The notes under the pieces were generated by a model. It was not told where the DNA came from. It saw nothing but the letters and a program-made list of their open reading frames with translations, and ran no database searches. The position numbers were made by a program, and so were the translations under genes. A stretch of DNA of 64,000 nt, taken from the NCBI RefSeq assembly GCF_053078305.1, contig NZ_CP166879.1; one strand, given 5' to 3'. Within the stretch, counting starts at the first letter, position 1; every line of letters begins with the position of its first letter. Shown in pieces: positions 45,135-64,000 of this stretch.

Positions 45135-45148
45135 TTGTTCGGTATCAA
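45135..45148 (-). promoter_or_regulatory. FNR binding site of the dmsA promoter (TTGAT-accg-AACAA on the dmsA strand)
   Basis: Consensus FNR dyad ~175 bp upstream of the dmsA start codon; dmsABC is a classic FNR-activated operon. Confidence 0.7.
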
Positions 45149-45191
45149 AGGGAGACAAAAAAAGCGCCCGCAGGAGGTTTAACGCTACTTA

Positions 45192-46256: not shown

Positions 46257-46325
46257 GATTAGCCCCTCCAACGGATAAATTAACCAAACACTCCCTGCGG
46301 GATGAAACCCGCTCGATGTGTAACG

Positions 46326-46673: not shown

Positions 46674-46774
46674 ACCACTAAAATCCTCGCAAAAGTGTCG
46701 TAATTTCGACATTAAACAAACCAAAACAAACCTTCATAAGGTGCAATAGGCGCACCTGTGCGAGAGGATAACAA

Positions 46775-47299: not shown

Positions 47300-47305
47300 T
47301 GAACG

Positions 47306-47701: not shown

Positions 47702-47714
47702 CCCGGCATGGTTA

Positions 47715-47909
47715 TTAGTATGTTGGTCCCTTAGAAAAGTTCCAGGAACTCTTGCGAGGGTATTTATGAAGTACTTTTTCGCGGACATCGTTAGCCAGAT
47801 CTCTGATTTGATCGTGCTTATCATCAGAAGACGGAGGAACTTCGGGGATTTTATCCACGATTTCAATTACTGATTTAAGCATTTTTATTAATTCATCGTC
47901 GTAAGACAT
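47715..47909 (-). CDS. Hypothetical small protein, reverse-oriented inside the early operon
   Basis: 64 aa from MSYDDELIKMLKS with a perfect AGGAG Shine-Dalgarno 6 nt upstream; convergent with the 47306 gene; lower GC. Confidence 0.5.
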   Translation of the reverse strand: MSYDDELIKMLKSVIEIVDKIPEVPPSSDDKHDQIRDLANDVREKVLHKYPRKSSWNFSKGPTY

Positions 47910-48016
47910 TGTTATCTCCTTTTTCTGGTTGTGTGGAAACACCAGAATACCACGCGCCGGGCGTGGTTAAACATCCCGGCACTGATTTTCATTTAACTTA
48001 AACGGGGTTTTCCGAT

Positions 48017-48355
48017 ATGACACAGCGACGCAGCTTCCGCACTGGCGCAGAACGCCACGCAGCCCGTTTCTCAACCAGCGCATCACGCAGCAACTCGCAC
48101 TACAGCCTGCAGGAAACGCACGCCACACCTGACGGGCATCCGGTTAAACAAACCGGTAAACACACCTGGCTGATTAATGATGCCGGAATTGTCATTCACC
48201 GGGGCGCACGCAACCCGATTACCGGAAATACCTGTTACTCCCTGACTCGCGGAGATGAGCAGTTCGGGCAGGATTTCACCCTGCACGAAGCATTAAGAAC
48301 GGCAGACCGGTTAATCAGCGGTCGCAGTTTTCAGCACCCGGAACATCGCCGCTGA
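48017..48355 (+). CDS. Hypothetical phage early protein
   Basis: 112-aa ORF in the early operon; no recognisable motif. Confidence 0.45.
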   Translation: MTQRRSFRTGAERHAARFSTSASRSNSHYSLQETHATPDGHPVKQTGKHTWLINDAGIVIHRGARNPITGNTCYSLTRGDEQFGQDFTLHEALRTADRLISGRSFQHPEHRR

Positions 48356-48374
48356 TAAATAAAAGGATTCAGCC

Positions 48375-48617
48375 ATGATCGAAGCCTACAAAATACTTAT
48401 TAATAATGCGTTGCAGCGTTATCACTTCGAACTCGCAAACCGGGGGGTAACCCGGGACGAAGGACTTCGTAACTCACTGCGGGGCGCAATTATGGGACTG
48501 TATAACTGCGCACTGGGCAGCGATGACCGCGAAGCACTGGAAGAATTAAAAGTTATTGTGGCCGAACTGTTTGAAGGTGAAATCGTTGAGCCTTATTTCA
48601 CAGAGGTGGCAGCATGA
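48375..48617 (+). CDS. Hypothetical phage early protein
   Basis: 80-aa ORF with AAGGAT Shine-Dalgarno; stop overlaps the next start (ATGA). Confidence 0.5.
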   Translation: MIEAYKILINNALQRYHFELANRGVTRDEGLRNSLRGAIMGLYNCALGSDDREALEELKVIVAELFEGEIVEPYFTEVAA

Positions 48618-48739
48618 GCGTATTTCTTTCATGGGTGATTCTGATTATTTCCGTGCTTATGGCGATTGGCATTATGCGAATTATCGAAGCGCTGAAAAAT
48701 ATCGAATCTTTATTTACTGGCGAAGAACGCCGTAAATAA
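48614..48739 (+). CDS. Small hydrophobic (single-TM) peptide, translationally coupled
   Basis: 41 codons MSVFLSWVILIISVLMAIGIMRIIEALKNIESLFTGEERRK; absent from the ORF track (<60 aa); ATGA overlap with the upstream gene. Confidence 0.4.
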   Translation: MSVFLSWVILIISVLMAIGIMRIIEALKNIESLFTGEERRK

Positions 48740-48818
48740 ATAACCAACCGGACAGAAAACATTAAAACCATCCGCATCTGCGGAGGGCTTCACTCAATCC
48801 AGAAACGGAGAAACAGCT

Positions 48819-49097
48819 ATGAGCACCAATACACCTACAGAAATAAACAAACTATTTACCGACCCGGCGCATATTGAATTGACGCAAAAAACGCTGACTG
48901 AAATAACCAATGTACTGGATGAAAGAATATCAGAAATAGATAAAGACAAGCATTTTGCTACTTACATGGCCCTGCAAATGCAAAGCATGGCAATGGTGAC
49001 AGCAAAACAGACCATCAGTGAACTCTATATGAAAAACCTGCGCCTTGAGCACGAACTGGCAGAACTCCGGGCACAGTCCGGCCAGTTTTCAGCGTGA
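48819..49097 (+). CDS. Hypothetical phage early protein
   Basis: 92-aa ORF with ACGGAG Shine-Dalgarno; helical C-terminus. Confidence 0.5.
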   Translation: MSTNTPTEINKLFTDPAHIELTQKTLTEITNVLDERISEIDKDKHFATYMALQMQSMAMVTAKQTISELYMKNLRLEHELAELRAQSGQFSA

Positions 49098-49108
49098 GGG
49101 GCAGGACG

Positions 49109-49360
49109 ATGAACAGCATATTTACCGCCACAAGACGAACCCTGCTGACGCATTTCACCGATGCCGCGGGCCGCGAATTCATGGTGGAAAGTTATTTAAT
49201 CACAACGACCACGCCGTGCCCGTCAGACGCTGATTATCTCTACATCCATCTGGCTGACGGAACACAAATCACCGCGATTGCCAGTACCGTTCGCGAAGTA
49301 ATGACCATCAGAGGGGCATGGAAATCAGAAACACAAGCCCACGGAGAGCTGCGGCCATGA
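49109..49360 (+). CDS. Hypothetical phage early protein
   Basis: 83 aa from MNSIFTATRR with GAGGGG Shine-Dalgarno; stop overlaps the next start. Confidence 0.5.
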   Translation: MNSIFTATRRTLLTHFTDAAGREFMVESYLITTTTPCPSDADYLYIHLADGTQITAIASTVREVMTIRGAWKSETQAHGELRP

Positions 49361-49569
49361 TCAGCAAGTACACCACCAACGCACGTAAACCCGGTAAAGA
49401 CGCACGCCACCACATCGCCGTACTCCGCAATCTGTTACTGGAGGAAATCGACGACTTCACGGCGACGCTGAGCGGTCCGGGCGCACCAGTAACACCAGGT
49501 GAGATCCACCGGGACCTTAAACGCCGTATTGAAAACGCCATTGATTACACCCTGAACCCGACCGAATAA
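49357..49569 (+). CDS. Hypothetical phage early protein
   Basis: 70 aa from MISKYTTNARKPGK; ATGA coupling to the upstream gene. Confidence 0.45.
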   Translation: MISKYTTNARKPGKDARHHIAVLRNLLLEEIDDFTATLSGPGAPVTPGEIHRDLKRRIENAIDYTLNPTE

Positions 49570-49595
49570 CCGGAACAGTAACGGAGGTTATCGCG

Positions 49596-50150
49596 ATGAG
49601 ACTTACACCAATGGGAATACCGGGCAAAGCCCCGGCACATGTGAAGGCGTGGACACAGCAGGAAGATCGGTTACTCATCTCGCTTTATCAGGAACACAAC
49701 ACACATCAGATGGCTGAACGAATTCAGCGAACCCGTAAAGCAGTTATGCACCGGATTCGTTTTTTACGTAATCGTGGGCTGATTGGCCGCAAGAGAAAAG
49801 CACCACTGAGTACAGAAGCCATAGCCTTTCTTATTAAAAACCGTCATGTAAAAACCGCACAGGAAATGGCTCTGGAAGTGGGATGTAGTGAGTGCACAGT
49901 GAGGTACACACTGCGTAAACGGGGTTACAACCTGAAAAAATGCGGTGAGAACCACCATTGCGCCAGATACAGCGATCATCTGGTTGAGCTGGTCACGGAG
50001 CTACGCGACATACACAACATGACGTTCTGCATGATCGCTGAACACATCAACAGCACGATACAGATGCACATTAACGACGATGCGGCGTTTCATCTCTACC
50101 ACCGCCGCACAGCGGCTGACGCCGCGCTCTGTGAACTGTTACCGGGCTGA
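49596..50150 (+). CDS. Putative DNA-binding early protein with two HTH-like segments
   Basis: 184-aa ORF with GGAGG Shine-Dalgarno; two helix-turn-helix-like stretches judged by eye; no family assigned. Confidence 0.5.
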   Translation: MRLTPMGIPGKAPAHVKAWTQQEDRLLISLYQEHNTHQMAERIQRTRKAVMHRIRFLRNRGLIGRKRKAPLSTEAIAFLIKNRHVKTAQEMALEVGCSECTVRYTLRKRGYNLKKCGENHHCARYSDHLVELVTELRDIHNMTFCMIAEHINSTIQMHINDDAAFHLYHRRTAADAALCELLPG

Positions 50151-50269
50151 GTGATCATCATGCACACACAAAAAAACCGCTTGCCATGCCGCAATCAGTC
50201 AGGTTACATTCCCACTGCACCTCATAAAACGGGTGCCGGGATTACCACCCCGCCGACTACACAAGCGCA

Positions 50270-50291
50270 CAACCGCGCCAGCGGTTTTTTT
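50270..50291 (+). terminator. Intrinsic terminator inside the prophage early region
   Basis: AACCGC-gcca-GCGGTT hairpin followed by TTTTTTT. Confidence 0.5.
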
Positions 50292-50470
50292 GTGCGTACT
50301 GTATCGCCACGTCTTTTTCGCGTCAGAATTATGGCGGGGCGTACGGGGCCGACTTCGGTCGGGCCGGGGTCTTGTGTAGCCGGTTGTGGTAACCCTGTAC
50401 GTCTCGCCACCCTGAGATTACCGCCTCGGGTTGGTGAGTTTTCACAACTTACTACACAAGGGGCCACACC

Positions 50471-50698
50471 ATGGCAAACCGCAAACAACAGCGCGTCCGC
50501 GCTGAGCGTCTTCACATCCGCACCGAAATCAACCGCAGACTCTGGCGCGCATCACGCGTCGCGCAAATCATGTACATCAACATGCTGCATGAACACGCAC
50601 ACGCGCTGTCAGACCGTTACTGTGCCGCCGTCTTCAGCTACCTGGCGGATGACCTGGCAGAGCTGCAGGACCTTATCAACCAGCAACACCACCACTAA
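50471..50698 (+). CDS. Hypothetical phage protein
   Basis: 75-aa ORF with AAGGGG Shine-Dalgarno; basic N-terminus, His-rich C-terminus. Confidence 0.45.
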   Translation: MANRKQQRVRAERLHIRTEINRRLWRASRVAQIMYINMLHEHAHALSDRYCAAVFSYLADDLAELQDLINQQHHH

Positions 50699-50766
50699 AC
50701 AACATCCTGAAGCCATCCCGCACCCGTGCGCGGGAGGCTTCCGCACGTCTGTTACCGGAGGTTCTC

Positions 50767-51189
50767 ATGAAGAACGTTAAGGGACTTTCAGATATTCAGG
50801 ATTTTTTTAACTGGATGTGGGCAGTGGATCCCCGGCTGGCTTCCCGCCTGAACGACTGGCACGACTATTACCGCCGCGCCTGTAAACAGGCCGCCAGACG
50901 CGTCACCACATACGGGGATTTCTCCTTCACCGTTGACGGCAGTTACCGCGTGGACGTGAAAGGCGATGGTGATGGTTTTGGTTTTGGTTTATTTCACATC
51001 AACGGAACCGACAGCACCGCCATCAGCTGGTCGTCGTCAGAGATGACGCTTGTTCTGGAAATGACAAACCACAGCGTGGCCGTGAAAGGTATATACACCG
51101 CAGAAGACTTTATCGGTGAATACCAGCGCCTTCTCGTGCTGTACCGGGCAGCGTTTCAGGCGGCAACTGCCGGGGAGTGCGACGCATGA
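50767..51189 (+). CDS. Hypothetical phage protein
   Basis: 140-aa ORF with GGAGG Shine-Dalgarno; stop overlaps the gpA start (ATGA). Confidence 0.5.
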   Translation: MKNVKGLSDIQDFFNWMWAVDPRLASRLNDWHDYYRRACKQAARRVTTYGDFSFTVDGSYRVDVKGDGDGFGFGLFHINGTDSTAISWSSSEMTLVLEMTNHSVAVKGIYTAEDFIGEYQRLLVLYRAAFQAATAGECDA

Positions 51190-53705
51190 GCGACCATAAC
51201 GCACAACTGGCGTACCCGTGGAACGCCCCGCTGCCGGTTATCGATCCTGAAACGTTCGGCAGAGCGCAACCAACCGCATTACGCCAGGCCATTCAGAGCT
51301 ACATCAACGAAGACATTCGCACTGACGCCAGACTGGATGAAGAAACCGTCGCCTTCCTGACAACCACAGACGAAGGGAAGCGAATTAATTCGCATCTTCA
51401 CCACGACGAAGAGCGTCGGATCAGACTGGAAAAACTGACGCGACACAAACGCGAAAATCCACCCACGCTGGTATCTGAAGCCATGGCAGAGCTGCGCGCC
51501 CTGCCGCCGTTTCTTGCCGGTCCGCTCATCCGTGACCTGGCCCGCCTGAGCCGCAAACAGGAGAGCGCACGCCGGGAAGGGCTTAAGAATAACAGCGCAT
51601 ATGCGGCGGATAACTTCGTTCGTCACGGCCTGCGTGCCCGCCTGAAACGTATCGCCCGTGTGAATGAACGCTTTGCCACCCCGGCCTTTAAGGCCACCGC
51701 CGCCCGCGAACGGCTGGATGAACTGCTTATGCTGCCGCAGCTGAGCCGTGACGAAATCCAGCGCCTTGCCACCCTGACCGCCACCGCGTTTTCCGCCGCA
51801 CTGGAGCGCGCATGTGATGAGGTCATCGAAAAGACCGGCAGGGGTGACGATGACCTGTTCACCTGGTTACTGACCTACCAGCCACTGGCACGCATGGCGT
51901 TAAAACTGGGTATCACACCACCCTGCTGGCCGTCGCTGGAAATCAGACCCGACCGCCGCACCGCCCCCGACCCGGAACAGGTGCCGGGTGCGGTCATGCG
52001 CCTTTCCTGTGCGACATGGTGGAACAGTCAGTTAAGACACCTCCGGGACATCTGGCGTGAAGAGCTGTTACGCGCCGCAGGTCTGGTGTCACGTAAGACA
52101 TCGGTATATATCAGCCATGAAGCGTTACTGGACTGGCGCGAAAAACGCCAGCGCACCCGCGATTTTCTGAAGGCCTGGGACATCGAGAACGAAGAGGGAG
52201 AACGGTTCAGCCTTGAGGATATCTACTGGGCAGGTCTCTCTAATCCGCGTAACCGCCGTAACGAGATGATGGCCTGCGTCCGGGGAATGGAGCAGGTCGC
52301 CGAAGCACGCGGCGACCTGGCGTTTTTCGTCACCGTCACAGCCCCTTCCCGTTTTCACAGCGTGAACGATGACGGCAGCCTGAACCCGAAATACTGCGGA
52401 GCAACGGTACGTGATGCCAGTGATTATCTGGTTTACCGCTTTTTCGCCGCCGTCCGCAGGGCCATCAACAAGGCCGGGCTGGGCTGGTACGGCGTGCGCA
52501 CAGTGGAGCCCCACCACGACGGTACACCGCACTGGCACATGCTGGTATTCACCAGCCCGGAAAACGAAGCCCGTATCACTGAAATCATGCGCAACGCCGC
52601 CATCAGGGAGGACCGCGCAGAGCTGGGTGATGATATCTCCCCGCGTTTTAAATGCGAAAAAATCGACCCGGCAAAAGGCACACCGGCGAGCTATATCGCG
52701 ACCTATATCGGTAAGAACCTGGACGCCAGCGCCTTCATGGGGAATGACCCGAAAACCGGCAAACCTTACGTCGATAAGGAATCAGGCAAAACCATGGCCG
52801 AAACCGTGGAGAACGCCATCGGCTGGGCGGCCCTTCACCGCATCCGCCAGTTCCAGTTCTTCGGTATCCCTCCCCGCCAGGTATGGCGCGAACTCCGCCG
52901 CCTTGCCGGGCAGATGGCCCGTAACCCGGCTGCCCCGCAGCGTCTGGACCATGACGACATTGACGCCATACTGGCCGCCGCCGACGTGGGATGTTTTGCC
53001 ACCTATATCACCCGCCAGGGTGGTGTGCTCATTCCCCGCAACACGTACCTGGTCCGCACCGCATACGAAACTGCCGAAGAGGCCAACGACTACGGCGAAT
53101 TCCCGCAACGCATTTACGGCGTCCGCGCCCCGTCACTCGGGGAGCGCTACACCATATGCACCCACCCGGACACCTGGAAACTGGTCAGACGTAAGCCGGA
53201 AAACGAAGACCGCACGGACGAGGGTTTTGACGTTGAGTGCGGCTTTGCCGCACCTTGGACTCGTGGCAATAACTGTCCCCCTGACCAGAATCTGACCATA
53301 AACGACCCGCCAGAAAGGCAGCCGGACGGACGCAGGGAGCAGCGACTTACCCTGCCGGAAGGTGATTTGGGTGAATGGTTAAGGTCACTGACCCCCACAG
53401 AGCGAAAACAACTCACCAGGCAGCTGAAAAACCCGCCACCTGACACGGAAACCGTGAAAAACGGCGGCATCAGTGCGCCCGCTGGCGGCGTTCGCGTGAG
53501 TGTCGCACTGACCGCTGAGCCACACATCACCGCACAAATCACCCGTGAGCTTGATGCGCTGGGCGTGCAGCTGCATGAAAGCGCCGTCGTTTCCGTCCGG
53601 CACGGTGCCCGCGTGCGCCTGGCTGACGGGCGCACCGCGTACTGGAATGACAGCACCCGCCGCATTGATATCACCCCCGCACCGAATACGGAGGCGCCAC
53701 AATGA
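51186..53705 (+). CDS. Rolling-circle replication initiator endonuclease (P2 gpA-like)
   Basis: 839 aa from MSDHNAQLAYPW (ATG with GGGGAG Shine-Dalgarno; the ORF track uses a GTG 9 nt upstream); HUH motif GTPHWHMLVF; size and position as in P2/186. Confidence 0.85.
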   Translation: MSDHNAQLAYPWNAPLPVIDPETFGRAQPTALRQAIQSYINEDIRTDARLDEETVAFLTTTDEGKRINSHLHHDEERRIRLEKLTRHKRENPPTLVSEAMAELRALPPFLAGPLIRDLARLSRKQESARREGLKNNSAYAADNFVRHGLRARLKRIARVNERFATPAFKATAARERLDELLMLPQLSRDEIQRLATLTATAFSAALERACDEVIEKTGRGDDDLFTWLLTYQPLARMALKLGITPPCWPSLEIRPDRRTAPDPEQVPGAVMRLSCATWWNSQLRHLRDIWREELLRAAGLVSRKTSVYISHEALLDWREKRQRTRDFLKAWDIENEEGERFSLEDIYWAGLSNPRNRRNEMMACVRGMEQVAEARGDLAFFVTVTAPSRFHSVNDDGSLNPKYCGATVRDASDYLVYRFFAAVRRAINKAGLGWYGVRTVEPHHDGTPHWHMLVFTSPENEARITEIMRNAAIREDRAELGDDISPRFKCEKIDPAKGTPASYIATYIGKNLDASAFMGNDPKTGKPYVDKESGKTMAETVENAIGWAALHRIRQFQFFGIPPRQVWRELRRLAGQMARNPAAPQRLDHDDIDAILAAADVGCFATYITRQGGVLIPRNTYLVRTAYETAEEANDYGEFPQRIYGVRAPSLGERYTICTHPDTWKLVRRKPENEDRTDEGFDVECGFAAPWTRGNNCPPDQNLTINDPPERQPDGRREQRLTLPEGDLGEWLRSLTPTERKQLTRQLKNPPPDTETVKNGGISAPAGGVRVSVALTAEPHITAQITRELDALGVQLHESAVVSVRHGARVRLADGRTAYWNDSTRRIDITPAPNTEAPQ

Positions 53706-54713: not shown

Positions 54714-54977
54714 TCAGGAACGCCGCGACAGTAGTTCAAGCGCATACCGGCGATCTTCCGGGCGCATGGCATCAACAAGAAACTTCACCATATTGCGACC
54801 GGAGCGGGCGCCGGGGCTGAGGGTATGGGAAAAGGTCATCGTACAGACGAAGGTGTGCCCGCATTCGACATCACTGCATGCACAGTACAGATCCGCAAGT
54901 TCAGGGGTTTTCCAGTCTGTCTTCCGGATGACAGCAGGTGCGCCACAGTCAGGACACCGGGCTTTAAAAATCCGCAT
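54714..54977 (-). CDS. Ogr/Delta-family zinc-finger late-gene transcription activator
   Basis: 87 aa from MRIFKARCPDCG...YCACSDVECGHTF, matching the remembered Ogr pattern CPxC...YxCxNxxCxxTF; GGGAGG Shine-Dalgarno. Confidence 0.75.
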   Translation of the reverse strand: MRIFKARCPDCGAPAVIRKTDWKTPELADLYCACSDVECGHTFVCTMTFSHTLSPGARSGRNMVKFLVDAMRPEDRRYALELLSRRS

Positions 54978-55014
54978 CTTACCTCCCGATAACACGTATC
55001 CCGGGGAAGACATT

Positions 55015-56067
55015 TTACCCGACCGGCACCACTTTTTCTTCCGCCACATGCCCGGCTTCCACATCAAAACGAAGATAAAGGTGTTCCGGTATATCGGGAT
55101 CGCTGTTCACGGCGTTCATGATTTTACGCTGAAGCGGTATCACCTCATCCTTGCGGTACGTTTCACGCGTCGTTTCCGGGTTAGGGATGGTGGCCCCGTT
55201 CGTGGGGATGATCCCCGCAAGACCGGCAGGAAAGCGGTGTGCCGTAAACACATCCTGGGCGCTGATCCCCTTGATGTTTGAAAATTCATCCTTGGCGCTC
55301 ACCTCACCAATCGGAATAATTTTCACCCCATCCGGCGAACCTTTGGGGATGTTGATGTACAGATTGCGGAAATTTCCCAGCCCCTTAGACTCCGCCACCT
55401 TCTCGCGGATCTCATCCTCCATCTCCGTGGTGATCCCAGGGTCGTTCGTATACAGCAAAAAGCCCATATGCGCCCCGTTGTTGTAGTAACGGCGACGAAA
55501 AAGGCTGGCCTCGCTGTTCAGCAGCGCCGAGTGAATGCCACCGATATAATCCGGCAGCCCGTAAATTTGCTGACGCGGATCATACATCCGCAGAAAGATA
55601 ATATCTTCCGGCGTATAGACCAGCGCGGGACCTTCCTGAAGCACCACGAACTCACCGGTTTTGCGGCGCCGGAGATACAGCGACGGAAGCGGCTCAAGTG
55701 CCACGACGTCGCCGAATACGTTACGCACCTTGAGCAGGGCGAGATCGCCGAACAACAGGTAGTCAAATACCGCCTGTTCCATCTGGTCCGTTGTGAGGCC
55801 ACCACCGGTATAGCCCCCCGCCACCATGTTACGGCGGGCATACAGCACCCCACCGTGCTGGGCGTTAAGGTTCGGGAGCTGCGCCAGTGCCAGGCGGTTA
55901 ATCGGCAGCTGCCAGTGGTTGTGTTCGTTGTCATACCAGATGTTATGGTAGTCCGTGCCGGTGGTCAGCACCGGTTCCGGCTGACCAAACGTGATTGTGC
56001 TGCCACGTGCGGGCGTGAATGCTTTTTTCGTCACGCGTGACGTTTTGTTTCTGCGTTTCTTGCTCAT
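55015..56067 (-). CDS. Portal protein (P2 gpQ-like)
   Basis: 350 aa from MSKKRRNK, ATGA-coupled to the terminase stop; size and position as P2 Q. Confidence 0.75.
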   Translation of the reverse strand: MSKKRRNKTSRVTKKAFTPARGSTITFGQPEPVLTTGTDYHNIWYDNEHNHWQLPINRLALAQLPNLNAQHGGVLYARRNMVAGGYTGGGLTTDQMEQAVFDYLLFGDLALLKVRNVFGDVVALEPLPSLYLRRRKTGEFVVLQEGPALVYTPEDIIFLRMYDPRQQIYGLPDYIGGIHSALLNSEASLFRRRYYNNGAHMGFLLYTNDPGITTEMEDEIREKVAESKGLGNFRNLYINIPKGSPDGVKIIPIGEVSAKDEFSNIKGISAQDVFTAHRFPAGLAGIIPTNGATIPNPETTRETYRKDEVIPLQRKIMNAVNSDPDIPEHLYLRFDVEAGHVAEEKVVPVG

Positions 56068-57890
56068 GCGGCTTTCCCGAAGGCCCATGTGGACGGGCGT
56101 TCATAGTCATAATCTACAGGCTCATTAATCACGGCGTGCGAAATGGCAAAAAACACATCCGCATGCCCCGTAACATCCGACCGTTCCGCCACGAACGTCA
56201 GCGCGTTACCGCTTTTTGTGGTGGTGCGGCGTATGGACATGAACGACGCGGGGATCTCCGTGCGTTCACGGCTGGCCTCATCAATGGCGTCTTTCGCCCA
56301 CTCGATACGCTTATGGGCCACCACGTCTATCATTTTCATCACCAGGCGGTTTTTGCTCTCCACGCTGTAAAGAATGGCGTTAGCCTCACGTGGCGCAAAG
56401 CGACTGACGATATCAAACACCCCTTTCCCGATACCGGTGATATCTATGCCGATATAGGTAATGTTAAAGCGCTGCATCAGTTCGCGGATCTGATCGGCCT
56501 GCCAGGTGAAGTTAAATCCCTGCCACTGCCAGACGGCGAGTACACGGAACCGCTCGCCCTCATGGACAGGCGGAGCCACAATCACAAACGTGGAATTATC
56601 CCCGGACCTTGACGGGTCAAAGCCCGCCCATACCTCACGATTGCCGAACGGACGTGCCGCCGTGGGATCGTAGTCACCCCACGTCTCCATCTCCACCTCG
56701 CACCTGACCAGTTCGGAGAACTTAAATACCGCATCCTTGCTGTCAACAAACTCGCAGCCGTACAGCATCGCATAGGTGGTCGGGTTGTAGCGGTTCCTGA
56801 TACGTTCAATATCAACCCGTGCAGACAGGCCACCCGCCACCGCCTCTTCCAGCCGGATAATGTAGCGCCAGATCCCGTCAGGGCATTCACAGCCCACACG
56901 CATCGCGCTTTCTTTCGGAAACTCAACCGCACGACGCGCCGGGTCATCCCCGCGCCAGTCGTCACCATTCCAGACCAGATAAGCCTGGTGGGTTTTGGCG
57001 CTGGGTGTGGAAAAATACGTCGTGCGGTATTTGTCGTGGGTCGCCATTGCCGAGGCCACTTCATGCAGTCGCGTGAATTTTGGGATCCAGAACACCTCAT
57101 CGCCGTAAAGGTGGCCGTTAAATCCCTGGGCGGTGCTGACATTGGTGGACAGGAAGCGCAGCATTGCACCATTGCTCAGACGGATATGCTTACCCGTGAG
57201 CGTGATCCCAAACTGCAGGGCGAAGTTAATAATATATTCACGAAAGATTTCCGCCTGTACCCGTGACGCAGAAAAGAAAATCTGGTTATCACCGGTCACC
57301 ACCGCATCTTCGAACGCTTCCCATGCAAAATACCAGGTCATGCCGATCTGGCGGCTCTTGAGGATGAAACGGCGCTCACGGTGCCGGTTCTCGCGGCAGT
57401 GCAGCTGGTAGGCATAAAGATTTTTACGCGCCCATTCATCCAGCATTTCAGCAGTCAGTCCGGAAACGTCGTTTTTCCGGTAGCGCCGCTTTTTCCCTTC
57501 TCCCCCGCCGCAGGTCCCCGCAGCCGCGCCGTCCTCATACCCTGCCGGACGCAGGGCGGCAATTTCCGCCATCCTTTCAGCGTGTTTGTTTTTCTGGGCG
57601 ATGATCTTCACGTGCTGCGCGATAAGTTCACGCAGTTCGGCAAGTTCACACTCTGTCTTGCCCTCCCGTCCGGTCAGCACATCAATACGCCGGGCGATCA
57701 CGTCCTCAACGGATTCAGCGGGCAGCAGGGCGGCCCACTGCCCCACATCACACCAGTGGTAAACCGTGCGCGGCGGAATACCGAGTTCCGCCGCAATATC
57801 GCGGGGGTGCCACCGCTTCAGGTAAAGCGATCGCGCCGCCTCTTTGATTTCGTCAGAATATTTAGCCATGCGCCCATTATGGCGGCGCAT
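56064..57890 (-). CDS. Terminase large (ATPase) subunit (P2 gpP-like)
   Basis: 608-aa ORF directly upstream of the portal gene, divergent from the scaffold/capsid genes as in P2; exact start uncertain. Confidence 0.8.
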   Translation of the reverse strand: MRRHNGRMAKYSDEIKEAARSLYLKRWHPRDIAAELGIPPRTVYHWCDVGQWAALLPAESVEDVIARRIDVLTGREGKTECELAELRELIAQHVKIIAQKNKHAERMAEIAALRPAGYEDGAAAGTCGGGEGKKRRYRKNDVSGLTAEMLDEWARKNLYAYQLHCRENRHRERRFILKSRQIGMTWYFAWEAFEDAVVTGDNQIFFSASRVQAEIFREYIINFALQFGITLTGKHIRLSNGAMLRFLSTNVSTAQGFNGHLYGDEVFWIPKFTRLHEVASAMATHDKYRTTYFSTPSAKTHQAYLVWNGDDWRGDDPARRAVEFPKESAMRVGCECPDGIWRYIIRLEEAVAGGLSARVDIERIRNRYNPTTYAMLYGCEFVDSKDAVFKFSELVRCEVEMETWGDYDPTAARPFGNREVWAGFDPSRSGDNSTFVIVAPPVHEGERFRVLAVWQWQGFNFTWQADQIRELMQRFNITYIGIDITGIGKGVFDIVSRFAPREANAILYSVESKNRLVMKMIDVVAHKRIEWAKDAIDEASRERTEIPASFMSIRRTTTKSGNALTFVAERSDVTGHADVFFAISHAVINEPVDYDYERPSTWAFGKAA

Positions 57891-58035
57891 CCGGCCCGCA
57901 TTCAGGCAGAAAATTTCGGCTGTGTTCGGCTATCCCGCGTTATCCGAAGACAGCCGAATTCAGCCAGTAGCCCCCCGCTGTAAAAATCCCGACACTCACC
58001 GGAGTTCTTCAGATTTTCACGTAAAAGAGGCCACG

Positions 58036-59085
58036 ATGCCGCAGCCAACGTTGATGACCGACTGGATATGTATCGCCACATCAGGACCGACCGTTGACGG
58101 CCGCGAAATTGATCCGCAGTGGCTGACTGATGCCGCTGAAACCTATTCCCGCAACACCTACACGGCGATGCTGTGGCCCTGGCATGAGGAAGAAATCGGA
58201 CACCGCCAGTACACCAGTAATCTGGGTGAAGTGGACTCACTGAAAGCGGAAACCGGCGAGGACGGTAAAACCCGCCTCTACGCACGGCTGGTCCCTAACC
58301 AGTACCTGATTGAAGCCAACAGACTGGGGCAGAAGCTGTTCACATCCGCCGAGATAGTGGAGAACTTCGCCCGGAGCGGACGCGACTATCTCCTGGGCGT
58401 GGCGGTGACGGATATCCCCGCCAGTCTGGGGACGGAAAAAATCCGCTTCACCCTGAACAACGAGGAATACACGGCACAGCGGGCGAACTGCCAGACGTTC
58501 ACGCTGGGCAGCCTGTCACCGGACACCTCCCCGCCCCCCCGTAAACCTGAATCATTCCTGAAACGCCTGTTCAGCGCAGGACAGACCGACAACACCGACA
58601 CCAGTAAGCCTGATACAGGCGAGGACGCAAAAATGGACGAAATTAAAGCACTGCTTGAAAAGCTGATCACCCTGGTGGAAGGCGGCAGCGCCGCTGCCGC
58701 TGGCGAGGGCACAGCAGACACACCGGAAGAAGCAAAAGCCGAAGTCGCGGAAATCGCCGCCGAAATCGCCGATGCCGCCGCAGAGGTGGCAGAACTGGCA
58801 GAAGAAGTGGAAGCCGCCCCGGAAGATGAGGTTAAGGCTGAAGCCTTCAGCGCCGCGAAAGCGAAGCTGGAAGACGCGATTAAAGCGTTCAGTGCCATCA
58901 CACCGGAAAAAGGCGAACGTTACCGCCGCTTTGCCGCCCGTCGCCGGGACGACACCGACAAAGAAGAAATCAAAGCTATTGCCGAAAAACTTAACGACCT
59001 GACCACGAAGCTGTCAGCAACCGGCATCACGCCACGACCGGCTGGCACACCGGCAGAAAGCGAAAAACCGTTTGACTTTGTTTAA
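58036..59085 (+). CDS. Capsid scaffolding protein (P2 gpO-like)
   Basis: 349 aa from MPQPTLMTDW with AAGAGG Shine-Dalgarno; LLGVAVTDIPASLGTE resembles P2 gpO LVGLAVTDDPASLGTE; Ala/Glu-rich helical C-terminal half. Confidence 0.75.
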   Translation: MPQPTLMTDWICIATSGPTVDGREIDPQWLTDAAETYSRNTYTAMLWPWHEEEIGHRQYTSNLGEVDSLKAETGEDGKTRLYARLVPNQYLIEANRLGQKLFTSAEIVENFARSGRDYLLGVAVTDIPASLGTEKIRFTLNNEEYTAQRANCQTFTLGSLSPDTSPPPRKPESFLKRLFSAGQTDNTDTSKPDTGEDAKMDEIKALLEKLITLVEGGSAAAAGEGTADTPEEAKAEVAEIAAEIADAAAEVAELAEEVEAAPEDEVKAEAFSAAKAKLEDAIKAFSAITPEKGERYRRFAARRRDDTDKEEIKAIAEKLNDLTTKLSATGITPRPAGTPAESEKPFDFV

Positions 59086-59096
59086 GGACACGCAAC

Positions 59097-60125
59097 ATGC
59101 AACTGAACCAGAAAACCGAATCACTGCTTCGTAAGTACGCTGCCGGACTGGGCGCGGCAAACGGGGTTGACGACGTCACACGCTATTTTGCGCTGTCTGA
59201 CCCGAAGGAGACCGCGCTGCGTGACGCCATCATGCACTCCGACGAGTTTTTATCAAAACTGCCGAACGTGCTGGATGTTGAACAGGTGACAGGCCAGGTG
59301 GTTACCACCGGCGTTCCGGGCCTCCATACCGGACGTAAAAAAAATGCCCGTTTCACCCTTCCGCTGGGTGTTACCGGGAATGAATACAAGCTGGCTGAAA
59401 CCGATTCCGGTGCCCACCTCCTGTACACCACACTGGTCACCTGGGCAAACGCAGGCGGTGAAAACGAGTTCTTTAACCGCATTCAGAATTTTGTTAACAG
59501 ACAGATCGCGCTGGATATCCTGCGCATCGCCTTTAACGGTACCAGCGTGGCCGAAGATACCGACCCGGTAACCAACAAAAACGGCGAGGACGTCAACACC
59601 GGCTGGCATGCCATCGTCAAAGGCCGCAGCGCAAAACAGATCGTGGAGGCTGGCCCGACGCTGGGCAAGGGTGGCGACTTTATCGGGCTGGATGCAGCCG
59701 TGGCAGACCTCGTGCACACCCTCATTGATGAGTCGTATCGCGGTCATCCGGATCTGGTGGTACTGGTTGCGCCCGATCTTGTGGCACAGGACAAGGTGAC
59801 GCTGCTTAACGCCATCGACGCCCCCACGGAAAAAGTGGCCGCGCAGCTTATCGGTCGCCAGATCGCCGGGCTGACAGCATACACCCCGCCGTTCATGCCG
59901 GAAGGACGCCTGATTGTCACCACGCTGGCAAACCTTCACATCTACACGCAGCGCGGCACCCGTCAGCGCCGTGCGGAGTGGAACGACGATCGCAAGCGTT
60001 TTGAAAACAACTATCTGCGCATGGAAGGTTACGCCGTGGAGCACGACGAAATTTACGCGGCCTACGACAAGCTGACCATCAAGGGCGCAGAAGCGGCAGA
60101 AGAGCCCGCATCTGGCGGCGCATAA
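59097..60125 (+). CDS. Major capsid protein (P2 gpN-like)
   Basis: 342-aa ORF; GKGGD...LDA and HPDLVVLV motifs resemble P2 gpN; position after the scaffold gene. Confidence 0.8.
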   Translation: MQLNQKTESLLRKYAAGLGAANGVDDVTRYFALSDPKETALRDAIMHSDEFLSKLPNVLDVEQVTGQVVTTGVPGLHTGRKKNARFTLPLGVTGNEYKLAETDSGAHLLYTTLVTWANAGGENEFFNRIQNFVNRQIALDILRIAFNGTSVAEDTDPVTNKNGEDVNTGWHAIVKGRSAKQIVEAGPTLGKGGDFIGLDAAVADLVHTLIDESYRGHPDLVVLVAPDLVAQDKVTLLNAIDAPTEKVAAQLIGRQIAGLTAYTPPFMPEGRLIVTTLANLHIYTQRGTRQRRAEWNDDRKRFENNYLRMEGYAVEHDEIYAAYDKLTIKGAEAAEEPASGGA

Positions 60126-60142
60126 GCACAGAGGGCGGCGCA

Positions 60143-60841
60143 ATGACACCCTGCCAGCGACACCGGGCGAAAATCCGCACACAGGAGGCACTCGAACGCC
60201 GGGAGGCGCTGACGGCCTCCCCGGTCAGCTTCCACCTGTTACGCGCGGAGCTTGATCGCGATGTGGCACGGCTGCGCAGTCTTCCGGTCCGTGAAGAGCG
60301 GCTGGCGTTCAAGCGCGACATTCTCCTGCCGCGCTGGCTGCCCGTCGCGGAGCGCTATATCGCTGACGGAAAGCGCCACGCCTGCCCGGTACTGGTGTAC
60401 TGCATCATCTGGCTGTTCGACACGGGCGACCTGAGTCGCGCCCTTGACTGGGCAGACATTGCCATCAGTGAAGGCCAGGCCACGCCGGACAACTTCCGCA
60501 GCACCCTGCCCGCCTTCGTGGCAGACACGGTGCTGCAGTGGGCCACCGACAACAGCGAGGCCGGACACAGCATAGAACCGTATTTTTCGCGCACCTTCAG
60601 GAACGTCACCACCTCGTGGCGGCTGCATGAGGAAATCCGCGCGAAGTGGTTCAGATTTGCCGGGCTGTATCTTCTGCGCGACGAGGCGGGCAAACCGAGA
60701 GCCACCGCGATTAATGATACTGCCGTACTGGAAAAGGCAGACGCATACCTGGCACAGGCGGCAGCACTGAGCCGTACCGCTGGCGTAAAAAGTATCAGGG
60801 CGCGCATCAGGGCACGCATCAGCGCCCTTAATGCAGCGTAA
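60143..60841 (+). CDS. Terminase small (endonuclease) subunit (P2 gpM-like)
   Basis: 232-aa ORF after the capsid gene with AGAGGG Shine-Dalgarno; gene order. Confidence 0.7.
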   Translation: MTPCQRHRAKIRTQEALERREALTASPVSFHLLRAELDRDVARLRSLPVREERLAFKRDILLPRWLPVAERYIADGKRHACPVLVYCIIWLFDTGDLSRALDWADIAISEGQATPDNFRSTLPAFVADTVLQWATDNSEAGHSIEPYFSRTFRNVTTSWRLHEEIRAKWFRFAGLYLLRDEAGKPRATAINDTAVLEKADAYLAQAAALSRTAGVKSIRARIRARISALNAA

Positions 60842-60948
60842 ACGACTACCCGCAGGGCCGGGCGGGCGCGGGAGGAGGCATCAGTGACGGAAACTGTATG
60901 GCCGTGGAATCCCGGACAGCCCGCCTTTTTATTCATATGAGGCACGTC

Positions 60949-61422
60949 ATGAGCGAACCGAGCTTCAGCGTCAGCGGTAAACCGCTGAAATCCACACCGC
61001 AGACGGTGACAAACGGCGAGCCGTTCTGGCCGGACCTTAATCTGGCTGAGCTTCAGGGGTCACGCACGCTTCCGGCTGATTTACCCGACGACACGGCGGC
61101 CATGGCGCTACTTGCCGCAGTGGCCGAGGTAAACACCACGCTGGCGCCGGTTGTGGCGCACTGGAAGGCGCAGGGGCATGAACGCGCCGCAGACGTACCG
61201 GGGGCCAGGCTGGGCGATGAAACCCAGCTGGTCGCACAGTACAAAAAGGCCGTTTATGCCCGTGCCAAGGCCGATCTTATGGGCGAGTTCGCCACCATTG
61301 GTCGCCGTGAAACCTATCCGGGGCAGGAAAGCGAGGACACACGCGCCACCTTACTGGCTGAAGCCTCGCTGGTCATGCGTAACATGCTGGGGCACAGACG
61401 CGCGGGAGTGCACATTATATGA
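60949..61422 (+). CDS. Head completion/stabilisation protein (P2 gpL-like)
   Basis: 157 aa from MSEPSFSVSG; WPDLNLAEL...AVAEVN...YKKAVYARA resembles remembered P2 gpL. Confidence 0.65.
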   Translation: MSEPSFSVSGKPLKSTPQTVTNGEPFWPDLNLAELQGSRTLPADLPDDTAAMALLAAVAEVNTTLAPVVAHWKAQGHERAADVPGARLGDETQLVAQYKKAVYARAKADLMGEFATIGRRETYPGQESEDTRATLLAEASLVMRNMLGHRRAGVHII

Positions 61423-61892
61423 ACCAGCTGGAAAGCCTGACCGCCTTCATTACCGAAAATCTGCCGCCTGACGCCATGCAGTTCTTCATGAGCAGTCAGG
61501 AAGACGCGCAGCTTATCCGCAGTCAGAAGGCGCTGGGTAACGACCAGATCCGCATGGGCGTGATGACGTACACCGGCGTGATTGCATGGGATAACTTCCC
61601 GTTCCGCAAATACTCACCGGGGCTGGTTTACGCGCTGGTCATGGCCTGGCTGGAAGAGCACGCGGACCCGCTGAGGGAGGAATTCCGCCCGGAGGATGTG
61701 AACGTCGACCCGCAGTTTAACGATGAGGACTCGTGCCTTCTCGATATCACGGTGGGACTGGCTGACCCGCTGATCATCCGGGTTCAGGAAGACGGCCCCG
61801 TTCCGTACAGGGGGAAACGCTGGACACTGGTTAACCCTGAAATCTGGACGGCGGAAACCATGGATCTGTTTGTCAGCAGGAGCCGCGAATGA
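61419..61892 (+). CDS. Putative tail completion protein (gpR-like)
   Basis: 157-aa ORF ATGA-coupled to gpL; weak by-eye resemblance to P2 gpR (LVYALVMAWLEEHADP). Confidence 0.4.
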   Translation: MNQLESLTAFITENLPPDAMQFFMSSQEDAQLIRSQKALGNDQIRMGVMTYTGVIAWDNFPFRKYSPGLVYALVMAWLEEHADPLREEFRPEDVNVDPQFNDEDSCLLDITVGLADPLIIRVQEDGPVPYRGKRWTLVNPEIWTAETMDLFVSRSRE

Positions 61893-62599
61893 TAAGCGGC
61901 CAGCTGAACCCGCAGCAGCTGGCAGAAGCACAGGCGATGCTTCAGTCGCTGGATCTGCCCCCGAAAAAACGCCGTCGCCTGTTATGGCGTATTGCCCGGC
62001 ACGGCATTATCGCCGCTGCCAGACGCCATCAGCGCGATCAGGCCGCACCGGACGGTACAGCATGGGCACCCCGGAAACGCGGTAAGGGGAAAATGTTCAG
62101 AAAGCTGCCGCGTCTTCTGGCGGTCCGTGAGATGCCCGGACAGGATGCCGTAAAGGTTTATTTCCGTAACGGCAATCACACCAGTGGCAGGAGCCGCATC
62201 AGTGCCGGTGCCGTGGGCTGGGTTCACCACAACGGCGCAGAAATCCGGGTCAGTGCTGACAGCTTCAGCGGTCAGGACCAGAACGGGCAGACCGCCACCC
62301 GCCGACAGGCAAAACGACTGCGGGAGCTGGGCTTTAAGGTACGCCAGAAGGGGCGCTGGCGGAAAGCATCCATGAAATACCTGTTAACGCTTTCGCGGGC
62401 GCAGGCCGGGTTGCTGATCACCATTATGGAAGATCAGATTATCGCCGGACCACGCCAGCAGAAGGCCCGGACATGGACCATTACCCTTCCGTCGCGCGTC
62501 TTTCTGGGGGTAACAAACGAAGAATTTTCACACATCCTGGCACGCCAGATGAACGCAATGGGCTACGGCCTGGACGTTGACGCACAGGATATCAGATAA
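61889..62599 (+). CDS. Putative virion morphogenesis / tail completion protein (gpS / Mu G-like)
   Basis: 236-aa ORF ATGA-coupled to the upstream gene; position in the head-tail joining module. Confidence 0.4.
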   Translation: MISGQLNPQQLAEAQAMLQSLDLPPKKRRRLLWRIARHGIIAAARRHQRDQAAPDGTAWAPRKRGKGKMFRKLPRLLAVREMPGQDAVKVYFRNGNHTSGRSRISAGAVGWVHHNGAEIRVSADSFSGQDQNGQTATRRQAKRLRELGFKVRQKGRWRKASMKYLLTLSRAQAGLLITIMEDQIIAGPRQQKARTWTITLPSRVFLGVTNEEFSHILARQMNAMGYGLDVDAQDIR

Positions 62600-62610
62600 G
62601 GAGTCACACC

Positions 62611-63756
62611 GTGAGCTGGCCGAATGTAACCGTAAGCCATCAGAACCGTTTCAACGGTGCCACCCGTGAAGTGGAGCGCACGCTGCTTTTTGTGGGCTAT
62701 GGCAAAAAGAACACAGGTAACACCCTTTCCGTCTCCCCTGAGACCGACCTGGACGACGTGCTGGGACCGGATGAAAGCCTGCTTAAATCCACGCTTACCG
62801 CCGCAATCGCCAACGGTGGCCAGAACTGGTTTGCCTATGTTCACGTTCTGTCTGAACCCAAACCCCCGGCACCGGAGGGTGGCGACGCTAACGCCGCATG
62901 GGTGGACGCGGTGAAAAAAGCGCAGACCATTGCTTCTGCCGAGGGCGTGGTGATTGCCATTGACATCACGGCCAAAGATGCCGTTAACCGCGCCACCGAA
63001 ACCCGCGCCCTGCTTCAGTCCGCTTATGGCCGCTTTGTCTGGTTCATGCTGTGCGTGGCCGGACCGGGCAAGGATGAAGCATGGGCGGCATACGTCACCC
63101 GCATCAGTGCCATACAGGACGGCGTGGCAGCACCTGGCGTGATGGTGGTTCCCCGCTTATGGGGAAATGAGCCCGGCGTACTGGCGGGCCGTCTCTGTAA
63201 TCCTTCCGTCACCGTTGCGGACAGTCCGGCACGTGTGGCAACCGGTGCCCTGGTGGCGATGGGTAACGATGAGATCCCGCAGGACGGCAAGAAACAGCCC
63301 CTTGAGCTGGCCACGCTGCGCTCGCTGGAAGGCAAACGCTTCAGCGTGCCCATGTGGTATCACGATTTCGACGGGCTCTACTGGTCAGACGGACGCACCC
63401 TTGATGTGGAGGGGGGCGATTACCAGGTCATCGAAAACGTGCGCGTGGTGGATAAGGTCTCCCGCCGTGTACGTCTGCGCGCCATTGCCCGCCTTGCGGA
63501 TCGCGCACTCAACAGCACACCGGGCAGCATTGCCGCCAGCCAGACATATTTCAGCCGCACGCTGCGTGAAATGGCGCTCGCCACGGAGATTAACGGCGTA
63601 CCGTTCCCCGGCGAGGTTAAACCGCCACAGGACGGGGATATCACCATCGTCTGGACCAGCAGTACACACGTGCAGATTTACATTGTGGTACGCCCCTACG
63701 AGAGCGCAAAAGCCATTGGCGTAAGTATTGAACTCGACACAGCACTGGAGATCTGA
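62611..63756 (+). CDS. Putative tail sheath-type structural protein (GTG start)
   Basis: 381-aa ORF with TAAGGAG Shine-Dalgarno, followed immediately by a small structural ORF; assignment by position only. Confidence 0.35.
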   Translation: MSWPNVTVSHQNRFNGATREVERTLLFVGYGKKNTGNTLSVSPETDLDDVLGPDESLLKSTLTAAIANGGQNWFAYVHVLSEPKPPAPEGGDANAAWVDAVKKAQTIASAEGVVIAIDITAKDAVNRATETRALLQSAYGRFVWFMLCVAGPGKDEAWAAYVTRISAIQDGVAAPGVMVVPRLWGNEPGVLAGRLCNPSVTVADSPARVATGALVAMGNDEIPQDGKKQPLELATLRSLEGKRFSVPMWYHDFDGLYWSDGRTLDVEGGDYQVIENVRVVDKVSRRVRLRAIARLADRALNSTPGSIAASQTYFSRTLREMALATEINGVPFPGEVKPPQDGDITIVWTSSTHVQIYIVVRPYESAKAIGVSIELDTALEI

Positions 63757-63757
63757 C

Positions 63758-64000
63758 ATGGCCGGAAATGAACGTATCAGCGGCGGCGCGTTTGATATCA
63801 ACTACGACGGGATCATGATCCACGTGGAAAGCGCCACCGTCACCATCACCGACAACAGCGCCGTGGCACAGACGCGCGGCGTGCCGAACGGCTACACCCG
63901 TGGTTCTGTTTCTGCCGATGTGGAGGTGGAAGTCGACGCGCAGAACTTTAAAAAGTTTGGTGCCGTGGCCCGCTCTGCGGGGTCGTGGCGTGCCATTCCT
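63758..64000 (+). CDS. Putative tail tube-type structural protein (partial, runs off the window end)
   Basis: ATG at 63758 with GGAG Shine-Dalgarno; open frame to the window end (MAGNERISGGAFDINYDG...). Confidence 0.3.
   Translation, partial: MAGNERISGGAFDINYDGIMIHVESATVTITDNSAVAQTRGVPNGYTRGSVSADVEVEVDAQNFKKFGAVARSAGSWRAIP

Follow-up and report, generated by a model that had tools for sequence, protein, structure and literature searches.

In P2 (Peduovirus), the order of the late genes, L-X-Y-K-lysA-lysB-lysC-R-S, places gene X and the lysis cassette between L and R, as the earlier note on this DNA had correctly stated, while the sheath and tube genes FI and FII are far away. In the prophage carried by the window, i.e., the whole stretch of 64,000 nucleotides of contig NZ_CP166879.1 (assembly GCF_053078305.1) that was analysed, four plus-strand ORFs follow gpL with no lysis gene between them, exactly where that note had placed them. 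The question raised by this locus is whether the lysis genes simply lie elsewhere, have been lost, or are missing at this point because the tail module stems from another lineage. We consider it very probable that the late genes in 61419-64000 encode the neck and proximal tail of an HP1-group member of the Peduoviridae, and that the lysis-free L/R junction represents the ancestral order of this group. The HP1 group is a division of the family based on tail proteins (PMC10612066).

The prophage is located in E. coli between dmsA and serS and displays the capsid cluster typical of the P2 family, with the portal and large terminase genes divergent from those of the scaffold, capsid, small terminase and gpL. 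The head genes were assigned from BLASTP and annotation (for the scaffold, BLASTP and the annotation in NZ_CP035498.1), and the five genes that follow from profile matches:

55015-56088 (55015-56067 with the RefSeq start), minus strand, portal (gpQ-like)
56064-57890 (ending at 57869 with the RefSeq start), minus strand, large terminase (gpP-like)
58036-59085, plus strand, capsid scaffold (gpO family)
59097-60125, plus strand, major capsid protein of the P2 family (gpN-like)
60143-60841, plus strand, small terminase (gpM-like)
60949-61422, plus strand, gpL, head completion protein/head-tail adaptor Ad1 (PF05926, E=2.5e-34; phrog_71)
61419-61892, plus strand, gpR-family tail terminator/tail completion protein (PF06891, E=3.3e-18; phrog_65, tail terminator)
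61889-62599, plus strand, gpS-family neck protein (Ne1/tail completion) of 236 aa (PF05069, E=7.3e-07; phrog_26, E=2e-30)
62611-63756, plus strand, contractile tail sheath of the HP1 orf23 type (PF10758, DUF2586, E=2.6e-129)
63758-64000 (gene cut by the window end), plus strand, tail tube of the HP1 orf24 type (PF10772, Phage_HP1_Orf24, E=1.3e-25)

Since a full capsid module is present, a tailocin or another contractile element without a head was ruled out.

The Pfam assignments of gpL, gpR, gpS, sheath and tube are far beyond chance, and the PHROGs agree with them (Ad1 adaptor, tail terminator, tail completion/Neck1, tail sheath and tail protein, respectively). At E<=0.1, the sheath matches DUF2586 only and the tube Phage_HP1_Orf24 only; the former possesses the conserved core fold of contractile sheaths and the latter the beta-sandwich fold of tail tube/Hcp proteins. 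The R-like, S-like, sheath-like and tube-like identities proposed earlier are thus confirmed by Pfam, PHROGs and, for sheath and tube, by fold; instead of holins, endolysins or proteins of unrelated function, the profile searches returned neck and tail families for the four ORFs. Although the gpL ORF is open from 60898, the start giving 157 aa agrees with the relatives, e.g., gp06 of the Salmonella phage SI7 (73% over 157 aa). The gpR-family protein shares 62% with SI7 gp07 and 27% with HP1 orf21. The gpS-family protein (PF05069 score of 29.6 bits for a cutoff of 24.3) is 37.5% identical over 80 aa to S of P2, a protein with the role of Ne1 (PMC4362835). Both ends of P2 gpS align to it and flank an insertion of ~70 aa, which is lacking in P2 gpS and, in the alignment, common to all HP1-group homologues, including HP1 S (orf22, 227 aa). 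Only the first 80 codons of the tube gene occur within the window, the full length being 153 aa in the near-identical NZ_CP035498.1.

The coupling of the ORFs by ATGA overlaps, as suggested in the earlier note, holds for L/R (61419-61422) and R/S (61889-61892) but not for S/sheath and sheath/tube, which are separated by gaps of 11 nt and 1 nt, respectively. The two overlaps suggest that the neck-protein genes are translationally coupled. A Shine-Dalgarno sequence of the GGAG type occurs 6-10 nt upstream of every downstream start (61404-61408, 61878-61882, 62600-62603 and 63747-63750), with AAGGAG 7 nt upstream of the GTG start of the sheath gene. The late block would constitute one long transcription unit starting from the divergent P/O promoter region and activated by the prophage's own Ogr/Delta-type protein. 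The sole strong terminator-like site on the plus strand of the late region occurs after the last baseplate gene (position 41415 of L001), whereas P2 has a terminator after S. A scan of the late region for sigma-70 promoters and terminators gave no enrichment over shuffled sequences. L001 contains 8 matches to the P2-type Ogr consensus TGT-N12-ACA, a number not above chance (10.6 expected), and none of them lies between P and O. This intergenic region does contain another dyad, as a candidate element.

No holin or endolysin was found in the segment 60.9-64.0 kb of the window, and the alternative-frame and minus-strand ORFs of this segment gave no Pfam match. A coding role for the long minus-strand or alternative-frame ORFs in 61.4-64.0 kb was rejected in the absence of family matches, such ORFs being expected because the DNA contains ~60% GC. 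The lysis genes do lie elsewhere, one of the two possibilities envisaged beforehand: in near-identical prophages they begin 5 nt past the tube gene, which places them ~225 nt outside the window. The prophage occurs in 11 of 5426 complete E. coli genomes, at 98-99.9% identity, and all 11 carriers contain the same block of tube, holin, N6/N4 DNA methyltransferase, M15 endolysin and i-/o-spanin genes. In NZ_CP035498.1 (strain 04-00955), which harbours the whole prophage and is 99.9% identical over window positions 55000-64000, the order is tube, holin, methyltransferase, M15 peptidase, Rz-like protein, chaperone, tape measure and baseplate. Its gene set looks complete, yet the annotation splits the tail-fibre gene into two pseudogene fragments. 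The lysis proteins belong to PF04550 (holin), PF01555 (methyltransferase), PF13539 (M15_4) and phrog_1152 (spanin); the holin is of the P2 Y type (39% to P2 Y), a conserved o-spanin ORF overlaps the i-spanin gene, and downstream of the spanins lie the genes for the tail chaperone and tape measure, then those for baseplate and fibre. Judging by these 11 prophages, the cassette of the present genome, outside the window itself, presumably occupies the same position. A defective P2-type prophage, from which X and the lysis cassette would have been deleted between L and R, has a practically negligible probability. Nothing but the absence of these genes at L/R speaks for it, whereas a complete cassette (holin, endolysin, i- and o-spanin) follows the tube gene, the tail genes are not of the P2 type at all, and the clean ATGA found at L/R also occurs in SI7, K139, phiO18P, ESSI-2 and ACA1.

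According to the HP1-group reading, the late order runs O, N, M, L, R, S/Ne1, one-domain sheath (DUF2586) and tube (HP1 Orf24 family), then Y-type holin, DNA methyltransferase, M15 endolysin and overlapping i-/o-spanins, then chaperone, tape measure, baseplate and fibre, and the lysis-free L/R junction is an ancestral state resulting neither from deletion nor from recent head/tail recombination. The sheaths of ESSI-2 and phiO18P have been modelled as one-domain proteins (PMC9230969). The sequence L-R-S-sheath-tube, then lysis, then chaperone/tape measure, also occurs in HP1, SI7, K139, phi3, phiO18P and ESSI-2, while ACA1 shares L-R-S-sheath-tube but has no annotated lysis gene between tube and chaperone. 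Each virion protein of the prophage, from portal through baseplate, has a counterpart in both HP1 and SI7. The late region of HP1 (Hpunavirus), orf15-orf35, is collinear with it gene for gene: portal and terminase, divergent from scaffold, capsid and small terminase, then L (orf20), R (orf21), S (orf22), sheath (orf23), tube (orf24), hol, lys, orf25, chaperone, tape measure and baseplate (orf28-35). The sheath and tube are 48% and 52% identical to those of HP1, and the homologues of orf28, 29, 30, 34 and 35 38-59%; the tail proteins comprise the Pfam families DUF2586, HP1_Orf24, DUF2590 and HP1_ORF34. An HP1-like genus has been described previously (PMC2771037). The prophage nevertheless differs from HP1 in its host, E. 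coli, in an identity limited to 27-59% at the protein level, in the methyltransferase gene located between holin and endolysin, and in its M15 peptidase endolysin, the HP1 lys product being annotated as a lysozyme; for neither endolysin nor holin of the prophage did BLASTP return an HP1 protein.

Over its entire late region, the prophage is closest, among isolated phages, to SI7, SW3 and SW5 from Salmonella, which belong to Irrigatiovirus (Peduoviridae). This genus is included, together with Seongnamvirus, in the HP1 group (PMC10612066, Table 2). From ogr and the terminase to the last baseplate gene, the prophage shares ~70% nucleotide and 47-86% amino acid identity with them, and the order in SI7 is identical (holin, M15 endolysin at 86%, Rz-like spanin and overlapping o-spanin ORF), except that the SI7-group cassette is devoid of the methyltransferase. 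The early region of these phages differs from that of the prophage (int 50%, rep 39%). With an intergenomic similarity to SI7 of ~40% (VIRIDIC-like BLASTN calculation) and an unrelated early region, the prophage falls outside Irrigatiovirus. The genus criterion of the ICTV is a nucleotide similarity of at least 70% over the whole genome. Against isolated phages, megablast covered 32% of a 9-kb query at 71%, with no close isolated relative in the collection.

With P2, the prophage shares the divergent Q-P/O-N-M-L cluster, the gpL, gpR and gpS families, the Y-type holin, an Ogr/Delta-type zinc-finger activator, a gpA-type replication nickase and a tyrosine integrase beside att. However, P2 possesses X and a lysis cassette between L and R, which the prophage does not, and its sheath and tube, members of other Pfam families, are encoded by a separate operon ~9 kb downstream. 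The late region is thus not of the P2-group/Peduovirus type, with no X and lysis genes between L and R and no FI/FII-type sheath and tube. No BLASTP or tblastn match was obtained to FI, FII, V, W, J, I, U and D of P2, and no homologue of P2 X was found (best tblastn E=0.06).

By BLASTP, the products of Q, P, O, N, M and L match P2 whereas the sheath, tube and baseplate proteins do not, a pattern which could suggest that in this very prophage a P2-type head and a foreign tail were recently fused between L and R. Such an event is highly improbable. The portal is 78% identical to that of SI7, 52% to HP1 orf15, 34% to P2 Q and 31% to that of P88, and the large terminase 76% to SI7 gp02, 47% to HP1 orf16, 41% to P2 P and 36% to that of P88; head proteins are nearer to HP1 than to P2, as also observed for the major capsid protein (68% to SI7, 34% to HP1 and 29% to P2). 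In addition, the identity to SI7 is similar for head (52-78%) and neck/tail (47-86%) proteins, the nucleotide similarity to SI7 is unbroken across the L/R junction (window 59259-62136), and the L-R-S-sheath-tube order is conserved across six or more genera. Head and tail share one history, both being nearest to SI7, and the idea that a tail of different lineage makes this prophage a mosaic has to be abandoned.

A replacement at the level of the family is another matter, namely that an ancestor of the HP1 or P2 group gained a much older paralogous contractile-tail module. We regard this as an even question. The HP1- and P2-group sheaths are reported to be as deeply diverged as myovirus tails in general, whereas the heads coalesce much later (PMC10612066), and the sheath and tube families (DUF2586, HP1_Orf24) differ from FI/FII of P2, with no BLASTP match, while R, S and the head still match P2 families. 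On the other hand, a quicker evolution of the tail proteins could mimic a deeper divergence. The ancient divergence of the HP1-group tail module from that of P2 (PMC10612066) is a property of the family and not of this prophage; such a replacement is compatible with the HP1-group reading because it concerns the history of the family.

The mosaic joint lies elsewhere. The early module, from int to rep, resembles that of P88 (classified in Xuanwuvirus, P2 group) and shares the dmsA-serS site, while the remainder of the prophage, beginning with ogr and the portal gene, is SI7/Irrigatiovirus-like. Nucleotide identity to P88 and vB_EcoM-569R5, a P88-like phage with no genus in its record, reaches 70-94% in patches up to ~50.76 kb of the window. 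P88 shares early genes (DUF4761 66%, DUF4754 82%, derepression protein 81%, rep 53%) and, like the prophage, a hok/gef gene at the right end; 569R5 has the same integration site beside dmsA as the prophage and an integrase 88.8% identical at the amino acid level. Their late regions are of the P2 type, R and S coming after L, X, holin and M15 endolysin, with sheath and tube far away, and the similarity of their virion proteins to those of the prophage either does not exceed 37% identity or is undetectable. From these comparisons, the prophage appears to be a mosaic with its joint between the early (P88-like) and late (SI7-like) modules, not at L/R.

With somewhat better than even confidence, we view the prophage as an inter-group recombinant of the Peduoviridae, which would represent a new genus-level lineage if isolated. 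The module from int to gpA (window ~45.26-53.7 kb) would come from P88-like P2-group phages and bring along both an immunity element made of the isrK/C4 antisense RNA and derepression protein and integration at the dmsA-serS att site, whereas the whole virion and lysis module would come from a higher-GC, Irrigatiovirus-like lineage of the HP1 group. The late-expressed DNA methyltransferase would have been inserted independently between holin and endolysin, as in phiO18P (Aeromonas; Bielevirus, HP1 group), which displays the same order and an N6-methyltransferase at the same place. Since the two enzymes share only their family domain (47% over 57 aa), they were likely acquired independently at the same position. 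No exact direct repeats of at least 12 nt were found as att cores at the prophage ends; all that the two ends share is a 20-nt motif, variable at its centre.

The lysis-free L/R junction is not an anomaly but the standard late order of the HP1 group. In P2-family phages, the lack of lysis genes behind gpL is the hallmark of this group and indicates neither decay nor a head/tail chimera. The current understanding of the Peduoviridae is unchanged by these results, which support the new names tail sheath and tail tube for the DUF2586 and Phage_HP1_Orf24 proteins, respectively, of enterobacterial prophages. The lineage is rare among complete E. coli genomes, and it shows that closely related integrases at a single chromosomal site can be followed by virion modules of either the P2 or the HP1 group, a modest case of modular exchange between two deep branches of the Peduoviridae.

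Five closely packed open reading frames on the plus strand of the window follow the P2-family capsid cluster at its 3' side.

Head, neck and proximal-tail genes in the window (the first five form the P2-family capsid cluster)
55015-56088, minus, portal
56064-57890, minus, large terminase
58036-59085, plus, scaffold
59097-60125, plus, major capsid
60143-60841, plus, small terminase
60949-61422, plus, L, head completion/adaptor (Pfam Phage_GPL, E=2.5e-34; PHROG Ad1 adaptor)
61419-61892, plus, R (Pfam P2_Phage_GpR, E=3.3e-18; PHROG tail terminator)
61889-62599, plus, S (Pfam Phage_tail_S, E=7.3e-07, above the curated cutoff; PHROG tail completion/Neck1, E=2e-30)
62611-63756, plus, sheath (Pfam DUF2586, E=2.6e-129; PHROG tail sheath, E=1e-146)
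63758 to window end, plus, tube (Pfam Phage_HP1_Orf24, E=1.3e-25; PHROG tail protein)

An earlier note had remarked that no lysis cassette follows gpL and had named the next four frames R-like, S-like, sheath-like and tube-like. The observation and all four names are correct, since they agree with the profile matches and the gene junctions, and no family match was obtained for alternative-frame or minus-strand ORFs across the L-to-tube region. The ATGA coupling ascribed to these frames holds for the L/R and R/S overlaps, whereas S and sheath are separated by 11 nt and sheath and tube by 1 nt; a GGAG-type ribosome-binding motif precedes all four downstream starts (R, S, sheath and tube). The P2 order given for comparison is also accurate, i.e., L-X-Y-K-lysA-lysB-lysC-R-S; FI and FII belong to another operon.

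The order found here is that of Haemophilus phage HP1, namely orf20(L)-orf21(R)-orf22(S)-orf23(sheath)-orf24(tube)-hol-lys-orf25-orf26-orf27(TMP), and it recurs in Salmonella phage SI7 (Irrigatiovirus), Vibrio K139, Pseudomonas phi3, Aeromonas phiO18P and Cronobacter ESSI-2. Pseudoalteromonas ACA1 has L-R-S-sheath-tube in common, but its tube-chaperone interval contains no annotated lysis gene. The HP1-like group has already been set apart from the P2-like group (PMC2771037) and, according to its tail proteins, comprises Irrigatiovirus, Seongnamvirus, Hpunavirus, Longwoodvirus, Phitrevirus and Bielevirus (PMC10612066, Table 2).

Sequence searches detect no relative of known structure for either the sheath or the tube, and the Pfam family of the sheath is still labelled 'unknown function'. 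Sheath homologues occur in 76 phage records, HP1-group genera among them, and those of ESSI-2 and phiO18P have been modelled as one-domain sheaths (PMC9230969), in agreement with the fold test performed here. The S protein comprises 236 aa versus 150 aa for P2 gpS, the Ne1 neck protein whose mutants produce tails unable to join heads (PMC4362835). In an alignment with seven homologues, HP1-group S proteins match P2 gpS at both ends, and a conserved basic insertion of ~70 aa (residues ~130-205), present in all the HP1-group gpS/Ne1 homologues aligned, is missing from P2 gpS.

The E. coli prophage of the window occurs in 11 of 5426 complete genomes (98.2-99.9% identity), including NZ_CP035498.1 (strain 04-00955; prophage region L001), where it lies between dmsA and serS. 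In this genome, the full-length tube gene encodes 153 aa and the lysis genes begin 5 nt after it, with a holin (PF04550, 39% identical to P2 gpY), an N6/N4 DNA methyltransferase overlapping the end of the holin gene (PF01555; L001 29520-30272, ~window 64519-65271, just past the end), an M15_4 peptidase endolysin, and an Rz-like i-spanin (phrog_1152). An unannotated +1-frame ORF overlapping the Rz-like gene (L001 30803 or 30860 to 31096) codes for a lipoprotein signal (…LLMITSGC…), shares 44% identity with ESSI-2 gp15 and is conserved in SI7 as well; this is probably the o-spanin, in an overlapped arrangement resembling P2 lysB/lysC. Downstream follow the tail chaperone, DUF6890, tape measure, DUF2590, gpJ-like and gpI-like genes, then the fibre, its chaperone and three homologues of HP1 orf33-35. 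Because the tube-to-chaperone block is kept in all 11 carriers, the cassette can be placed, from the carrier sequences, ~225 nt past the window end. The suggestion that the lysis genes lie elsewhere was thus well founded, holin and endolysin being located directly after the tube in NZ_CP035498.1 and the other carriers. The methyltransferase, found in 11/11 carriers, is lacking from the SI7 cassette, and phiO18P possesses a different one at the equivalent position (only 47% over 57 aa). The tail-fibre gene of strain 04-00955 (L001 35817-37877) is annotated as two pseudogene fragments, and for this reason that prophage copy may be defective.

The other proposal, a tail module from a different lineage, predicts a head/tail chimera at L/R. 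Every prophage protein was compared by BLASTP with SI7, HP1, P2 and P88.

Amino acid identity of head proteins to SI7, HP1, P2 and P88, respectively
Portal: 78%, 52%, 34%, 31%
TerL: 76%, 47%, 41%, 36%
MCP: 68%, 34%, 29%, 31%
L: 73%, 32%, 28%, 29%

Neck and tail proteins show 47-86% identity to SI7, in the same range as the head proteins, and the nucleotide similarity to SI7 runs unbroken across the L/R junction (window 59259-62136), which rules out a chimera at this point; the mosaic joint lies elsewhere. The integrase shares 88.8% identity with its counterpart in vB_EcoM-569R5; the record of this P88-like prophage shows the same ycaC-dmsCBA flank, and the two therefore share the att site. Early genes resemble P88 (DUF4761 66%, DUF4754 82%, derepression protein 81%), the gpA-like rep is 53% identical to P88 versus 39% to SI7, and patchy nucleotide similarity to 569R5 and P88 (70-94%) extends up to ~50.76 kb, with 68% within rep. 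Starting at ogr and the portal gene (54.8 kb), the prophage shows similarity to SI7 alone; P88 and 569R5 differ in their P2-type late regions (L-X-holin-endolysin…R-S), and Xuanwuvirus, the genus of P88, has been placed in the P2 group (PMC10612066, Table 2). GC content rises from ~49% early-left to ~58% in the late region (flanks 51-53%). Since int-to-rep matches P88-like phages, the late region matches SI7 only and GC shifts, the prophage appears as a hybrid of a P88-like lysogeny/replication module (45264-53705) and an Irrigatiovirus-like virion/lysis module (54800-64000 and past the end). Similarity to SI7 over the whole prophage being ~40%, it should be placed outside the genus Irrigatiovirus.

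In the early region, isrK (63.6 bits) is directly followed by C4 antisense RNA (79.6 bits; Rfam, window 50217-50414) and, just 3', by an ORF (50471-50698) for a 75-aa 'derepression protein' (PF25738, 81% to P88 gp14), an assembly that looks like P1/P7 immI-like antisense-RNA antirepressor control in a P2-family prophage. The motif GATGGAC-N6-TGGACAC occurs with differing central hexamers at both prophage ends (window 45270-45289 and L001 10033-10052, in the int 3' end; L001 43006-43025, just before serS); its left copy is also present in 569R5, and the motif is a candidate for an att or Int-binding element. A search of the prophage ends for exact direct repeats of at least 12 nt found none. 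A full-length STnc130 sRNA match (122 bits, window 45055-45189), between dmsA and the integrase, directly adjoins the left end, and the right end carries two Hok/Gef toxin genes (L001 42261-42401 and 42732-42872), 48% identical to P88 gp52 and 86-88% identical in DNA to Stx-phage hok loci. Window 37094-38852 (~1.76 kb, between pflA and ycaD), with a minus-strand ORF for a 540-aa amino-acid permease (PF13520), is missing from NZ_CP035498.1, a chromosomal difference between strains that has nothing to do with the prophage.

A gene adjacent to that of the portal encodes an Ogr/Delta-type zinc-finger protein, which upon induction would activate the divergent terminase/scaffold promoters; the rightward transcript would cover head, neck, sheath, tube and lysis genes before the rest of the tail genes, with translation of L, R and S coupled through their ATGA overlaps. 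The only strong plus-strand terminator-like hairpin of the late region stands 3' of the last baseplate gene (L001 41415). The P2 activator consensus TGT-N12-ACA is absent from the terminase/scaffold intergenic region; a dyad in this region, TTCGGCTGT-N25-ACAGCCGAA (inner TTCGG…CCGAA, 57915-57958), may be a site for the Ogr-like late activator.

Tail modules of the HP1 and P2 groups are reported to have diverged far more than their heads, and one of the two groups has probably taken up a paralogous tail module of older origin (PMC10612066). Such an acquisition is an event at the level of the family, not one that took place in this prophage, and the apparent anomaly is explained by the known architecture of the HP1 group, in which this gene order is normal.
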